Made by a program: the position numbers and the translations under genes
IMG/VR virus record: IMGVR_UViG_2778261226_000007
Strand: one strand, 5' to 3'
Origin: a virus
Taxonomy: Duplodnaviria > Heunggongvirae > Uroviricota > Caudoviricetes
DNA: 31,860 bases
Shown: positions 17,421 to 25,256 of the stretch, piece after piece
Layout: each line of letters starts with the position of its first letter
Numbering within the stretch: the first letter of the stretch is position 1
Notes under the pieces: model-generated
Told to the model about the DNA's origin: nothing
The model's database searches: none
Seen by the model: the letters and a program-made list of their open reading frames with translations, nothing else

Positions 17421-17909
17421 TTAAAACCGTTCCAGAGTGCATACCATCGCATCGGCGGGTAGTTTTTCCGTGAAGTCGACCTGACCGTGTTTATCGAAGT
17501 GGATCAGTAATGCGCATCCATCATTTTGGGTTGGGGTGTTTTGTGCTGCTGGTGGTTGTTTTTGGCTGAAATAACAGTCTTCCAGTTTTTCGAACACTTC
17601 CCACGCCTGATCGGTTTCCAGCATTTTGGCGTGACGGGCTGCTCCGCGTTCTGTCCAGAGGATGAGGTGCTTTGTACGCGGTGCAACTAAGTTACTTTGA
17701 GTAACCTTGTTCTTAAATTCCCGCAACTCAGCCCCTTCCAATTTGAAGTAGTGTTTCCCACAAACAAAACGCTCGGCATTGCGTGTATAGTTCACTTTGA
17801 TGTTATTAGTTTCGGTGCCATAAAGTTGTGCCAAAAGCTCGGTAGTAATGACAGGGATTTGGTTATGGGTGATCGGGGAAAGAGTTTCAACTGAGATTTG
17901 AATAGCCAT
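17421..17909 (-). CDS. ORF6N-domain (antirepressor/KilA-N-like) protein
   Basis: QIPVITTELLAQLYGT...NYTRNAERFVCGKHYFKLEG...LILWTERGAARHAK is paralogous to the N-terminal half of ORF 24402..25256. Confidence 0.8.
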   Translation of the reverse strand: MAIQISVETLSPITHNQIPVITTELLAQLYGTETNNIKVNYTRNAERFVCGKHYFKLEGAELREFKNKVTQSNLVAPRTKHLILWTERGAARHAKMLETDQAWEVFEKLEDCYFSQKQPPAAQNTPTQNDGCALLIHFDKHGQVDFTEKLPADAMVCTLERF

Positions 17910-17962
17910 AGGATGATCCTTTTTCTATGTGAATCATCACCACTGCTGACGCCAATCAGTAT

Positions 17963-18039
17963 GGTGGTGAACTGTGCAGGGTTGGCGTAACCGGGAAAAA
18001 GGAACCGGCGCGGATCGCTCCGCCCCCACACAGCCCACC
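17963..18039 (-). ncRNA. c4-like antisense RNA core, module C (77 nt)
   Basis: Closing stem GGTGG/CCACC plus CTGTG/CACAG. GNRA hairpin GCGGA-GCGA-TCCGC. A CCGG/CCGG hairpin carries b' (CCTTTTTC, 17995-18002) in its loop. a' is ACGCCAA (17982-17988). Targets: a2 TTGGCGT 17949-17955; b2 GAAAAAGGA 17918-17925 covering the SD of the ATG at 17909. Upstream copies: a1 18111-18117, b1 18096-18103. Confidence 0.7.
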
Positions 18040-18067
18040 ATTGAGATGTGACAGTGCAAACGACAAT

Positions 18068-18088
18068 AAAAAAGACGCTGGCGCGTCT
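18068..18088 (-). terminator. Hairpin plus T6 between b1 and the c4-like core (tR'-like position)
   Basis: Minus strand: AGACGC, loop GCCA, GCGTCT, followed by TTTTT. Confidence 0.6.
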
Positions 18089-18148
18089 GTTGTCGCCTTT
18101 TTCATCCGGGACGCCAATCCCGACGCCAGATTTTGCTGGCGCGTGAGG

Positions 18149-18178
18149 AATATAGCCCCGGACAATGTGTCTGGTCAA
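18149..18178 (-). promoter_or_regulatory. Sigma70 promoter immediately downstream of Q (candidate late promoter PR')
   Basis: Minus strand: TTGACC, 18 nt, TATATT, beginning 5 nt after the Q stop codon. Confidence 0.6.
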
Positions 18179-18182
18179 GCTC

Positions 18183-18578
18183 CTACATGATTCGTTCTAC
18201 GTATCTGTCCATCTCCAGTCGGATATCAAGCATCATCAACATGCCATCAATAACCCCTTCCGCTTTCTGCAGGCGCTTGCCAATACAGGTATCCGAACAC
18301 CCATGCTTTCGTGCCAACCCCATAAAAGTCATTCCACCTACGTAATAATCCACCAACAAATCGTGCAAATCCTGATTTTTCTTGTTCAACCGGGCCATAC
18401 AGCCACAAATTATCATTGCATCATCATCAGAACACTGAGGGCGTGATTTCACTTTCGGCGGGATTAATCCTTTAAAACCAGCAGCGATTGACGCCCATGA
18501 CACATCTTCGTGATTGTTCGCAGCCCATGATCCCCACCGCTCCATAACCTGCTGAATATCACGCACCATCGTTATCAC
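18183..18578 (-). CDS. Q: Late-gene antiterminator Q
   Basis: 131 aa. ...RWGSWAANN...IICGCMARL...[35 protein letters not shown] fits my memory of the antitermination Q family. Position is after RusA and before the lysis genes. Confidence 0.75.
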
Positions 18579-18933
18579 CTGTAATTTCGTAAATCTTCAC
18601 GCCCAACCGCCCACCAGGAACAGGCAGTCCGCGCACAATATTGATTTCATCAAACTGCTCGTCGTCTATAAGTAGTCCGGCATGCGTCAGCGCATCCAGT
18701 GGTGCTTTCAGAATATTGTCCAGGTCACGACGGCGCTTATCCGGCGGCTCTGCAATAATTTTTATTGCCAGCCTTCCGGACAGATTTAATTTCAGTCGCT
18801 GCTGGCGAACAATAAGCGCCACATCCCGGCGATAACGCTCCCCTGCTTTTGATACAAAATATGTGCTGCCACGACGACGCCAGTAGGTGTTCACCGTCGG
18901 TGGGTAAGGTAAAACACACTCTAAGCGCATCAA
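18559..18933 (-). CDS. rusA: Holliday junction resolvase RusA
   Basis: [15 protein letters not shown]...[30 protein letters not shown] closely parallels E. coli RusA. Confidence 0.9.
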
Positions 18934-19187
18934 CGCAGTACCCCCTGCACCAATTTTTCAAATTTTCCAACTTTTGTTTCCAGCTCTGCCACACAATCCA
19001 CCAGCTCATCCACCGCTTTTTGTGCGCGGTGTTTTGCCTGCATCAGTTCTCTGAGCGCGGGTACCATATCCCGACGAATGGCATCTTTTGTTACGCCTGT
19101 CTTTTCCAGTTGTTCCGCCTGTCGTAACATTTCCTGTGCCTGTTTACGTAATTGTTCAGGCGTAAAAGTCATGGTCTGGTTGTTCAA
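18930..19187 (-). CDS. Hypothetical coiled-coil protein
   Basis: 85-aa ORF with overlaps to its neighbours. No family recognised. Confidence 0.5.
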   Translation of the reverse strand: MNNQTMTFTPEQLRKQAQEMLRQAEQLEKTGVTKDAIRRDMVPALRELMQAKHRAQKAVDELVDCVAELETKVGKFEKLVQGVLR

Positions 19188-23503: not shown

Positions 23504-23515
23504 TATGTTGGCGAA

Positions 23516-23878
23516 TCATGGGCGCACCTCCCATTGATTACGACGGAAAACAGTGTGATTCAGGTTGGTTTCAGCCTCATGGAATGCTTCAATACAGCTC
23601 TCGTAGTACCGCATTGTGCGCAGACTTAACCCAAGCTGAAGCATCATCAGGCCATCAAGGGTGATGTAATAACCACGCAGGGAATCGCCATACACGTGGT
23701 AAGTACCCGGTATGAAATTACGGGAGAAGAATTCACGCGAGCAGTTCAGATACTCGATTTTGTCGACGATATTCTGGTGCATGCGCTTGAAGTGGCAGGC
23801 AACATGCAGGGAGAAAATAACAGCCTTACCGTTGACGATCTCAATTTTGAGGAATGGGGAAGTTGGGATCGTAGCCAT
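23516..23878 (-). CDS. Divergent Rha-like protein
   Basis: Start at MATIPTSPF with GGAGG 8 nt upstream. Aligns with the N-terminal ~110 aa of the Rha protein at 22671..23222 (INGKAV/INGRVV, HFKRMHQNIVDKIEYL / YFTKRHERVLDRIRNL). The upstream 106 codons are reinterpreted as module A RNA. Confidence 0.6.
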   Translation of the reverse strand: MATIPTSPFLKIEIVNGKAVIFSLHVACHFKRMHQNIVDKIEYLNCSREFFSRNFIPGTYHVYGDSLRGYYITLDGLMMLQLGLSLRTMRYYESCIEAFHEAETNLNHTVFRRNQWEVRP

Positions 23879-23935
23879 GATGGCAGCCTCCGTATGCAAT
23901 GGATAACTTCCACCACCGGAAACGCCAATTTCGCT

Positions 23936-24014
23936 GGTGGTGAACTGAGCAGGGTTGGCGTAACCGGCGCATACGGAAACCGGCGCACCTTTCGGTGCCC
24001 CCACCCAGCCCACC
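23936..24014 (-). ncRNA. c4-like antisense RNA core, module A (79 nt)
   Basis: Closing stem GGTGG/CCACC. GNRA hairpin GCACC-GAAA-GGTGC. A CCGG/CCGG hairpin carries b' (CCGTATGC, 23969-23976) in its loop. a' is ACGCCAA (23955-23961). Targets: a2 TTGGCGT 23922-23928; b2 GCATACGGA 23890-23897 overlapping SD GGAGG. Upstream copies: a1 24090-24096, b1 24073-24080. Confidence 0.7.
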
Positions 24015-24044
24015 ATAATTTGGGTATAGCTGAGTTGTAGCAAC

Positions 24045-24064
24045 AAAAAAGACGCTAACGCGCC
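24045..24064 (-). terminator. Weak hairpin plus T6 between b1 and the c4-like core, module A
   Basis: Minus strand: GGCGC, loop GTTA, GCGTC (one G-U pair), followed by T6. Confidence 0.4.
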
Positions 24065-24127
24065 AATTGTCGCCGTATGCAATTCCAGGACGCCAATCCC
24101 GGCACCCGCTTTATAAGGTGCTGGAAC

Positions 24128-24156
24128 AGTGTAACGTCCCGAAATTGCAGAATCAA
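24128..24156 (-). promoter_or_regulatory. Sigma70 promoter of module A
   Basis: Minus strand: TTGATT, 17 nt, TACACT. Confidence 0.55.
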
Positions 24157-24192
24157 TATGTTGGTTGCGGATCATTTTGTACCTACTCGCCG

Positions 24193-24402
24193 TCAATCCG
24201 CGTTTTCGCGCTGATTCCAGTCATGAACAGCACGTTCTTTCGAATCAGGGATCTGGTTTGCGTTACAGCAAGTACATGCGACGTAATAACCATCATCGCC
24301 ATCCAGAAAATATTTCACCTCAATGAGTTGTACTTCCGGATTTCCGCAGAACGGGCAAGGTTTCAGATCGACATCACCAGTTACACACGTCTTGGTTTGC
24401 AT
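24193..24402 (-). CDS. Lar-family restriction alleviation-like zinc-ribbon protein
   Basis: 69 aa with LKPCPFCGNPE...VACTCCNA, the Lar family pattern as I recall it. Confidence 0.65.
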   Translation of the reverse strand: MQTKTCVTGDVDLKPCPFCGNPEVQLIEVKYFLDGDDGYYVACTCCNANQIPDSKERAVHDWNQRENAD

Positions 24403-25256
24403 TATTTGTTCTCCTGTAAAAGATTCGCGAGCTCAGTGTTATGGGTAAACAGCCCATCCCATGTTTTCTTCATCGGTAGTTCACCGTTCAGATAATGGCG
24501 ATATAACCAGGCGGCACCTTTTTTCTTCAGGAGTGGTTTGAAAATCTCGCGCATTTCCCCGTTTTCCTGCTCAACCTGCCCAGAACGCTCAGTCAGGTAT
24601 TGGTCACGTGCATACGCTTTTACACGCCAGCGCGGATACATAGCCTCCGGACGGTCGTCATACAGCCAGTTACGCTCTTCAAGGAACGCATTAATCTGAC
24701 GAGTGTTTACACCGTTGAGTTGTTTGCAGAACTGCACAGGAGTGATGCCATCGGCGAGATGGCTTTCGAGTTTGCTGATGTAGCGAGCCTGACGCTCTGC
24801 ATACCCGAGAGCAAGGCGTTCGGATTTTTTGGCTTCAATCCACGCTTCAGCAGCAGCGATCGGATCGTCAAAGTCTGGAATAGTGTTTGAAGAAGGCGTT
24901 GCTTTACGAAAATACGCCTGCTCCATTTTTTCGAAGAACGACCAGGCCTCGTCTGTATCGACGATTTTTGACATGCGGGCAGCGCCGCGTTCTGTCCAGA
25001 GGACAAGTGATGTTGTATGTTTATTAACCGACTCGCTAAAAGATAGTCGGAAAGATTTCAGCTCATCACCGCTGATTTTGAAAAAGTGTTTACCCTCAAC
25101 GAAACGATCTTCGTTTCGAATGTAGTTCTGTTGTATACGGATTGGCGTTGTTCCATATCCCGCCGCCAACGTTTCGGTGGTAACTACACGTACTCCCTGC
25201 CACTCAATAACTGGCAAGTTTTCAGGGTTGACTAATTTTTGTTTATTGATCATCAT
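24402..25256 (-). CDS. Antirepressor-like protein, ORF6N N-terminal domain plus KilAC/ANT C-terminal domain
   Basis: The N-terminal half is paralogous to 17421..17909. The C-terminal half (AAEAWIEAKKSERLALGYAE...QFCKQLNGVNTRQINAFLEERNWLY) is KilAC-like. It is the first gene after cro. Confidence 0.8.
   Translation of the reverse strand: MMINKQKLVNPENLPVIEWQGVRVVTTETLAAGYGTTPIRIQQNYIRNEDRFVEGKHFFKISGDELKSFRLSFSESVNKHTTSLVLWTERGAARMSKIVDTDEAWSFFEKMEQAYFRKATPSSNTIPDFDDPIAAAEAWIEAKKSERLALGYAERQARYISKLESHLADGITPVQFCKQLNGVNTRQINAFLEERNWLYDDRPEAMYPRWRVKAYARDQYLTERSGQVEQENGEMREIFKPLLKKKGAAWLYRHYLNGELPMKKTWDGLFTHNTELANLLQENK

Follow-up and report, generated by a model that had tools for sequence, protein, structure and literature searches.

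The window analysed here (the whole stretch of 31,860 nucleotides, nt, of the IMG/VR record IMGVR_UViG_2778261226_000007) represents a lambdoid prophage whose region 17421–25256 carries four genes of the ORF6N and Rha families. We suggest that this region probably combines three self-contained RNA-gated cassettes of the P1 immI / P4 / Gifsy-1 isrK type, with a role in immunity and anti-immunity, and an unregulated ORF6N+KilAC gene. Analysis of the sequence demonstrates the RNA elements and their structure, the complementarity of each lock to its cognate Shine–Dalgarno (SD) sequence, the diversity of the recognition codes, the conservation of the payload, and the orthology to Gifsy-1. The feature is real and its kind is already known; cassette 3 is orthologous to the published Gifsy-1 locus. 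The stacking of multiple re-coded locks on one conserved payload, in turn, appears to be undescribed.

Predicted RNA-gated cassettes and their recognition codes

All four genes are located on the minus strand, and the list of open reading frames together with Pfam searches supported the coordinates and families proposed for them in the initial annotation. The unlocked gene (24402–25256) encodes an ORF6N+KilAC protein of 284 amino acids (aa; ORF6N 73.6 bits, ANT/KilAC 27.8 bits). Cassette 1 carries a 120-aa Rha-like payload with the Rha N-terminal domain only (23516–23878; Phage_pRha 30.7 bits), cassette 2 a 183-aa Rha payload with the Rha domain and a helical C-terminal part (22671–23222; Phage_pRha 105.5 bits; AlphaFold model with a mean predicted local distance difference test score of 76), and cassette 3 a 162-aa ORF6N payload homologous to Gifsy-1 AnrP (17421–17909; ORF6N 77.2 bits). 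All these scores exceed the Pfam gathering cutoffs (Phage_pRha 29.9, ORF6N 27.8, ANT 25.3 bits), that of the 120-aa protein barely so. The cassette 3 protein is 45% identical to the N-terminus of the unlocked protein, and a sequence search of PDB with Rha and with ORF6N+KilAC gave no match. The idea that these families are typically annotated as antirepressors or regulators agrees with PHROGs, where the ORF6N proteins are listed as “anti-repressor” and those of the Rha family as “transcriptional regulator”; the unlocked protein matches PHROG 63, “anti-repressor Ant” (E 3.9e-46).

The three leaders align over approximately 300 nt with a mean column identity of 72% and have a common order: a promoter, an IsrK-like RNA (about 76 nt, with two hairpins plus an intrinsic terminator), a C4 RNA of 86–88 nt, and the payload, the start codon of which lies 50–57 nt after the C4 end. 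The placement of three genes behind antisense locks is confirmed by Rfam matches to C4 (RF01695) and isrK (RF01394) above the gathering cutoffs of 45 and 50 bits, respectively; apart from these three leaders, Rfam placed no such pair. The C4 matches are full-length (model positions 1–87) in all three cassettes, and the cutoff of c4-a1b1 (RF03163; 46.7 bits) is passed by cassette 3 only (52.2 bits). Our own C4 covariance model detected the same three C4 RNAs in the window and no others. The first gene was likewise correctly described as lacking a c4-like module and following cro directly: it is separated from the cro-like gene by a gap of 76 nt, and upstream of it neither Rfam (C4, isrK) nor our own covariance model (C4) gave a match.

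Following the P1 record, we designate the junction after the second C4 hairpin as a' and the loop of this hairpin as b'. The a' sequences of all three cassettes are perfectly complementary to a 7-mer that occurs twice, in the loop of the second IsrK hairpin (a1) and 4–11 nt after C4 (a2). The b' loop complements an 8–9-mer in the IsrK linker (b1) and a 9–11-mer over the payload SD (b2). The coordinates of all a and b sites, given below for the minus strand, were verified in the sequence.

In cassette 1, the predicted promoter TTGATT-17-TACACT (24128–24156) lies 6 nt before the isrK 5' end; it matches 8 of the 12 consensus positions, which is under the scanner threshold, and is conserved in cassette 2 and in related cassettes. 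The IsrK-like RNA (24045–24121; Rfam isrK 61.2 bits) includes a1 (TTGGCGT; 24090–24096), b1 (GCATACGG; 24073–24080), and a terminator hairpin with a U-tract revealed by the terminator scan (24051–24064). The C4 RNA (23933–24020; 80.7 bits in Rfam and 97.1 bits with model R1) folds into three helices at −45.0 kcal/mol and bears the b' loop (TTTCCGTATGCG; 23968–23979) and the a' junction (TACGCCAA; 23955–23962). The downstream targets (23886–23928) are a2 (TTGGCGT; 23922–23928) and b2 (TGCATACGGAGGC; 23886–23898), which covers the GGAGG SD 7 nt before the ATG.

Cassette 2 is arranged in the same way, with the predicted promoter TTGATT-17-TACACT at 23475–23503 and the IsrK-like RNA at 23392–23468 (Rfam isrK 57.7 bits), which contains a1 (GTGGAAA; 23437–23443), b1 (TCAATATAG; 23420–23428), and the terminator hairpin with a U-tract (23397–23414; terminator scan). 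Its C4 RNA (23280–23367; Rfam 82.4 bits, model R1 94.4 bits) has b' (GTTCTATGTTGA) at 23315–23326 and a' (ATTTCCAC) at 23302–23309; the downstream targets (23231–23273) comprise a2 (GTGGAAA; 23267–23273) and b2 (TTCAACATAGGGG; 23231–23243), ending 8 nt before the ATG.

The predicted promoter of cassette 3, TTGACC-18-TATATT (18149–18178), matches 10 of the 12 positions in the promoter scan and overlaps the end of the antiterminator gene Q, and the isrK 5' end is located 40 nt past the Q stop codon. The IsrK-like RNA (18068–18142; Rfam isrK 79.4 bits) carries a1 (TTGGCGT; 18111–18117), b1 (GAAAAAGG; 18096–18103), and a scan-detected terminator hairpin with a U-tract (18073–18088). It is followed by C4 (17960–18045; Rfam 74.0 bits) with b' (TTCCTTTTTC; 17995–18004) and a' (TACGCCAA; 17982–17989), and by the targets (17916–17955) a2 (TTGGCGT; 17949–17955) and b2 (AGAAAAAGGAT; 17916–17926), the latter covering the AAGGA SD 6 nt before the ATG.

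Minimum free energy folds of the C4 RNAs range from −43.5 to −45.0 kcal/mol and consist of a closing stem of 17 base pairs (bp) enclosing two hairpins. Among 75 homologues from the matches listed, 99.8% of the helix cells are paired and 17 of the 27 pairs have changed on both sides, as counted in an alignment that was fitted to the model and therefore leans towards it; in a control with slid partners, 36–49% were paired.

Cassettes 1 and 3 share the a code TTGGCGT, cassette 2 has GTGGAAA, and the b codes differ in all three cassettes (GCATACGG, TCAACATAG, and GAAAAAGG in cassettes 1, 2, and 3). Duplex energies were computed on the loops only, full-length RNAduplex runs of C4 against its flanks being uninformative because they ignore intramolecular structure. 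The b'/b2 duplex of cassette 1 reaches −16.7 kcal/mol, against −7.9 and −5.6 kcal/mol on the other two cassettes; the respective values are −12.1 against −6.7 and −8.7 kcal/mol for cassette 2 and −10.2 against −4.0 and −4.0 kcal/mol for cassette 3. The same is true of the 54 unique cassettes among the matches listed, where the mean cognate and non-cognate energies are −12.8 and −6.6 kcal/mol for b'/b2, −12.1 and −7.4 for b'/b1, −9.2 and −5.5 for a'/a2, and −9.0 and −6.6 for a'/a1. In nearly all of the listed cassettes, b2 ends 5–8 nt before the payload start codon, as it does before icd in P1.

An 8-nt complement to the cassette 2 b' loop (ACATAGAA; 17923–17930, minus strand) adjoins cassette 3 b2; the non-cognate value for this pair of cassettes is −8.7 kcal/mol. 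Together with the a code common to cassettes 1 and 3, this site hints at a partial cross-talk between the early and late cassettes. Other C4 targets in the window amount to isolated 7–8-mers, with no a+b pair outside the cassettes.

Diversity of the codes and conservation of the payload

To place these cassettes in a wider sample, a pattern scan of IMG/VR, about half of whose matches arose by chance, was followed by a covariance-model filter, which left at least 75 C4 RNAs. It was complemented by a second scan seeded on the 120-aa payload, which gave 80 loci in viral contigs. At least 16 a' and 36 b' sequences in at least 43 combinations occur among the 75 C4 RNAs from the matches listed. Variation across the aligned cassettes is concentrated in the a1/a'/a2 and b1/b'/b2 triplets; the sites of each triplet change together, and the a and b sets re-assort independently. 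Rha or ORF6N payloads were found in 35 of 50 cassettes among the matches listed, and the other payloads in this listed set included Bro-N, P22_AR_N (P22-Ant-like), P4-epsilon-like “Derepression” proteins (PF25738), and small icd-like proteins.

The 120-aa payload demonstrates how far codes and payloads are uncoupled. Seven cassettes among the matches listed have seven codes, and their payloads of 120–121 aa are 77–96% identical; in the 80 loci, payloads 80–100% identical stand behind 20 distinct full codes. The median pairwise ratio of non-synonymous to synonymous substitution rates (dN/dS) is 0.16, with dS of 0.23–0.74. Judging by these sequences, the payload is under purifying selection and does not represent a degraded Rha. 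The initial annotation, which regarded this Rha-like copy as shortened and divergent, should therefore be amended: the protein is 39% identical to the 183-aa Rha over 109 aa and belongs to a conserved, non-degenerate family of fixed length. The median payload identity stays at approximately 92% in three situations: with a nearby repressor that shares at least 90% identity with the CI of this prophage, with a diverged homologue, and with none within 4 kb. The payload is also found with unrelated repressor types.

C4 is located directly upstream of the payload in all 80 loci. Within 4 kb on either side of the payload, 53 loci have one cassette, 24 have two, and three have three; hence, 27 of the 80 loci contain an array, and arrays built of the 120-aa cassette have a period of 653–659 bp. 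Whole cassettes of 653–656 bp distinguish the window and its close relatives from one another: relative L002 has one early cassette, the window two, and relative L001 three, each also having a post-Q cassette. The late ORF6N payload of L002 (2263–5150) is split by an insertion of ISEc23 (IS66 family), and that of L001 (3125–3610) has the length of the window copy and is flagged as C-terminally incomplete or truncated by the Prokaryotic Genome Annotation Pipeline (PGAP). One more record, IMGVR_UViG_2778261085_000013 (3859–4599), has two cassettes as in the window, spaced by 653 bp, with the same codes and a 120-aa payload that is 100% identical; therefore, the prophage type of the window has been sampled independently. 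Homologues of the leader are present in 3040 of 5426 complete E. coli genomes, and leaders of this type also occur in many Shiga-toxin phages. Since the median is one place per genome and the maximum is seven, three cassettes in one prophage are at the high end and not unique.

These data bear on two other explanations. The array could be non-functional mosaic debris: the conserved leader of about 250 nt would be a hotspot of homologous recombination between lambdoid prophages, through which cassettes are gained and lost as mere by-products. The whole-cassette differences between L002, the window, and L001, the re-assortment of leaders and payloads, and the damage to the late ORF6N gene in L002 (ISEc23) and L001 (PGAP flag) would fit this scenario. 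We consider it highly improbable: it is contradicted by the purifying selection (dN/dS 0.16) and fixed length of the 120-aa payload, by the six recognition sites that are still mutually complementary in every cassette, and by the invariable position of C4 upstream of the payload.

According to the other explanation, the payloads are DNA-binding regulators of the phage's own lytic programme (compare Rha and Roi) that are harmful in the lysogen, so that the lock is a safety catch and the codes drift neutrally. Rha and ORF6N are indeed predicted DNA-binding families, the Rha label in PHROGs is that of a transcriptional regulator, the measured effect of AnrP in Gifsy-1 is an increased transcription of the antQ operon, and P1 puts the same lock on icd, a cell-division inhibitor. 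However, with dS between payload copies at only 0.23–0.74, the recognition loops have nothing in common and the a and b sets occur in new combinations, which exceeds the expected drift, and two or three near-identical payload copies per phage are hard to explain by a need for dosage. We regard this explanation as improbable.

Proposed immunity role and comparison with known systems

Cassette 3 is the positional and sequence orthologue of the Gifsy-1 antQ-isrK-orf45(STnc1160)-anrP locus, with the order Q, PisrK, isrK, C4, and ORF6N. The ORF6N protein encoded there and AnrP share 60% identity over 164 aa (E 3e-65) and match ORF6N alone, and the −35 and extended −10 regions of PisrK (approximately 34320–34350 in our Gifsy-1 locus L005) are conserved. 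The payload is 25 aa shorter than AnrP at the C-terminus. Gifsy-1 orf45 is the frame from the C4 AUG, exactly 45 codons long, with a stop overlapping the anrP ATG; the upstream open reading frame (uORF) of cassette 3 starts from the same AUG and has no such overlap. The Q proteins of the two phages are unrelated, without detectable similarity, and unlike Gifsy-1 the window has no isrJ match at the gathering threshold (100.3 bits in Gifsy-1). Cassettes 1 and 2 differ from the Gifsy-1 locus in their early location, Rha payloads, and a uORF frame that enters the payload. Between Q and the lysis genes, no other good promoter was seen besides that of cassette 3 IsrK. This promoter, conserved in spite of the unrelated Q proteins, might conceivably double as the Q-dependent late promoter, and the IsrK terminator might serve as the late terminator tR'.

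In Gifsy-1, transcription from PisrK continues into anrP and yields a long RNA that is silent in translation (Hershko-Shalev et al. 2016, PMC4825925). The substitutions G28A and G31A in IsrK and C159U and C162U in the orf45 region cause derepression, and silencing is restored when they are combined (PMC4825925). By our mapping of the numbering, these mutations fall in a1 and a', in the paper itself in helix b-I. The short IsrK activates in trans, AnrP raises transcription of antQ (the operon), and overexpression of AnrP induces Gifsy-1 (PMC4825925).

The cassettes share with P1/P7 immI the RNA family (Rfam C4), the site order a1, b1, c4, a2, and b2, and the location of b2 over the ribosome-binding site of the first downstream gene (11 nt before icd in P1); the gated gene set is in both cases annotated as antirepressor. 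Code differences between P1 and P7 result in heteroimmunity (PMC12197685), and C4 is trans-acting. Unlike P1, there is no icd-like small open reading frame between C4 and the payload, the lock being set directly on the payload SD, and the upstream element ends in an intrinsic terminator, as in IsrK. P1 has one cassette, this prophage three, and a relative four. The RCS47 “ant” gene was dropped as a comparator, since it is not the immI ant gene.

IsrK and C4 are structural homologues of P4 seqA and CI RNA (PMC3632133, PMC4825925). The likeness to P4 (seqA, CI RNA, seqB/seqC, epsilon) extends to some sampled cassettes that gate P4-epsilon-like “Derepression” proteins (PF25738). However, the payloads of the window are not epsilon-like, their host is a complete lambdoid phage with its own protein repressor, and P4 CI RNA acts mainly via premature transcription termination of the replication operon. 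In N15, the small RNA of immA silences an anti-immunity operon in the lysogen, which has a separate primary protein repressor. Similarly, the small RNA sar of P22 immI keeps ant silent in the lysogen beside the primary protein repressor (PMC12197685). The sar RNA is a cis-antisense RNA unrelated to C4. Neither N15 immA nor P22 immI is known to have stacked, differently coded cassettes.

On the basis of these analogies, we suppose that each cassette would be transcribed from its own sigma-70-like promoter, active in the lysogen. Most transcripts would end at the IsrK terminator and give a short RNA carrying the decoys a1 and b1, and the read-through transcripts would contain C4, the a' and b' sites of which could pair with a2 and b2 downstream. 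With b2 over the SD engaged, the payload would stay untranslated in the lysogen. An excess of the short IsrK-like RNA, or a lytic flood of the target transcript, may titrate C4 and unlock translation, and owing to the different b codes the RNAs of a cassette would act chiefly on its own lock. Derepression or “anti-immunity” is the most likely function of the payloads, in keeping with what was shown for their homologue AnrP. Acting in trans, C4 of a resident prophage could silence identically coded cassettes of incoming phages; stacking of differently coded cassettes, some with the same payload, would both widen immunity and help escape from it. Transcription, RNA processing, trans action, the payload targets, and the arms-race role are thus what we infer by analogy.

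We favour the role of a stacked, P1-immI-like secondary immunity or “anti-immunity” system with diversified codes, this role being the weakest link of the account. It is suggested by the trans action of P1/P7 C4 with code-defined heteroimmunity, by the hypervariability of the codes beside a conserved payload, by the stacking of the same payload behind different codes, and by the fact that the payload does not track its own repressor.

The initial annotation offered a different role, cross-induction: the four antirepressors would be aimed at repressors of other prophages or satellites in the same cell, so that induction of this phage wakes its neighbours, or satellites are sensed through these proteins. 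By analogy, this idea is plausible and compatible with the same data. The prophage's own CI has an S24 domain with GDSM, is expected to be self-cleaving, and therefore should not need an antirepressor; a LexA box, sought as an alternative control of the unlocked gene, was absent from the window. The independence of payload identity from the neighbouring cI type and the P4-epsilon-like proteins behind the same RNA lock in other elements also speak for it. A precedent is FsoA of Fels-1, which is under the Fels-1 repressor, is dispensable for Fels-1, and inactivates the Gifsy-2 repressor (PMC3121763). Barquist et al. brought up a link between lambdoid IsrK-C4 systems and satellite phages and speculated on a defensive role against satellites (PMC3632133). 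However, the characterised homologue AnrP acts on its own prophage, and cross-induction alone leaves the re-locking of one payload with 20 codes and its tandem stacking unexplained. The hypervariable, co-varying codes point to trans-silencing between phages, that is, to P1/P7-style heteroimmunity, more specifically than to cross-induction, which we consider rather unlikely.

Several points weigh against the secondary immunity that we prefer. For this phage, promoter activity, RNA processing, and action in trans are assumptions taken over from its homologues. Both Rha and ORF6N count as predicted DNA-binding domains, and the founding rha gene is known for a growth phenotype related to integration host factor (IHF), and not for antirepression. 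Unlike P1 Ant1 (ANT 106.5 bits), the three locked payloads lack KilAC (PF03374), which is present in the unlocked gene only. The three codes are not fully orthogonal, a' being common to cassettes 1 and 3, and two neighbouring cassettes of L001 have one b' in common. No full code is repeated within an array in the 80 loci, which does not differ significantly from random draws (P = 0.40). Finally, activation in Gifsy-1 was explained by alternative mRNA folds and uORF coupling, and not by titration of a processed C4, and co-expression of the C4 region did not relieve IsrK toxicity (PMC4825925).

A broader view can be put forward only tentatively. The a and b triplets may form a combinatorial, two-key RNA address system that diversifies under phage conflict and builds a heteroimmunity network across lambdoid prophages. 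If so, a phage with two to four stacked codes would have at least one copy that escapes the C4 RNAs of a resident prophage and, once resident itself, would silence a wider range of incoming relatives; the network would extend over lambdoid prophages in more than half of all E. coli genomes. Should the codes determine which phages can silence or wake one another, prophage induction in polylysogenic pathogens would be affected, and with it toxin release and gene transfer. In addition, the triplets represent a natural set of compact, apparently orthogonal translational locks, which may be reused in synthetic biology.

Leader annotation and neighbouring genes

In public records, the IsrK-C4 leaders appear as an “ash family protein”, as the N-terminal 100 aa of 281–284-aa “Rha family” proteins, or as a “peptidase”; the stretches concerned are 23879–24196, 23223–23534, and 17910–18178 (minus strand) in the window and 9217–10529 in L001. 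In PGAP annotation, the leader either stands as an “ash family protein” of its own or is joined to Rha. Of the database homologues of the 183-aa Rha, nearly all are listed with a length of 281–284 aa and with PF10554 and PF09669, some under the name “peptidase”, and the translated leaders match Pfam Phage_ASH (PF10554) and PHROGs 821, 995, and 3960.

The leader is nevertheless better interpreted as an RNA and not as a protein because of the compensatory changes in C4, the C4 loop of cassette 3, which lacks 2 nt relative to the other two cassettes and breaks the “Ash” frame with the fold kept, and the variable frame ends: in other cassettes, the distance from the AUG inside C4 to the end of its frame varies from 3 to 47 codons. 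Covariation and the frame-breaking loop indicate, within the limits of sequence comparison, that the PF10554 and PHROG leader models largely describe a translated RNA gene. This systematic misannotation appears to be unreported, and it hides a widespread RNA regulator behind a protein name.

The cassette 3 uORF (17937–18041, minus strand), the counterpart of Gifsy-1 orf45, has 34 codons, begins from the AUG in the C4 5' stem, and has its stop codon 30 nt upstream of the ORF6N ATG. In cassettes 1 and 2 (23878–24020 and 23222–23367, minus strand), the frame from the C4 AUG is stop-free into the payload. Such a frame was found in 21 of 50 cassettes among the matches listed, all from the Rha subgroup; in the ORF6N-type cassettes it stops before or at the payload ATG. 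Since the frame is stop-free, an N-terminally extended Rha isoform is formally possible.

The prophage is of the E. coli type, with its early-right and late genes on the minus strand and cI divergent on the plus strand. The order of transcription is the cro-like gene, ORF6N+KilAC, Lar, the 120-aa Rha-like gene, the 183-aa Rha gene, and an O-like replication gene, followed by DnaC- and DnaB-like genes, RusA, Q, ORF6N, an AraC-family gene, and holin. Three of the four genes are thus located between cro and the replication genes and one after Q, in line with the early and late operons named in the initial annotation. Since each locked gene has its own predicted promoter and terminator, these terms hold for position and not for operon membership.

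The CI-type repressor (25766–26455, plus strand) combines a helix-turn-helix (HTH) domain and an S24 self-cleaving peptidase (Peptidase_S24 62.4 bits, HTH_3; GDSM and KR motifs in the translation), and the cro-like gene (25333–25632, minus strand) has YdaS_toxin and P22_Cro HTH matches in Pfam. Antiterminator Q (18183–18578, minus strand; Phage_antitermQ 175.1 bits) is directly upstream of cassette 3. The gap between cro and ORF6N+KilAC (25257–25332, minus strand) contains an 11-bp GC-rich hairpin at 25280–25309 with a U-tract on the plus strand only, which could be a nut-like or a terminator-like element. A Lar-family restriction alleviation gene (24193–24402, minus strand; Pfam 43.1 bits) lies between the unlocked gene and cassette 1, its start overlapping the stop of the gene upstream. 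Between the late ORF6N gene and holin there is an AraC-family regulator gene (16454–17257, minus strand) flanked by strong terminator-like hairpins (17324–17345 and 16410–16429), which is the layout of a late-operon moron (accessory cargo).

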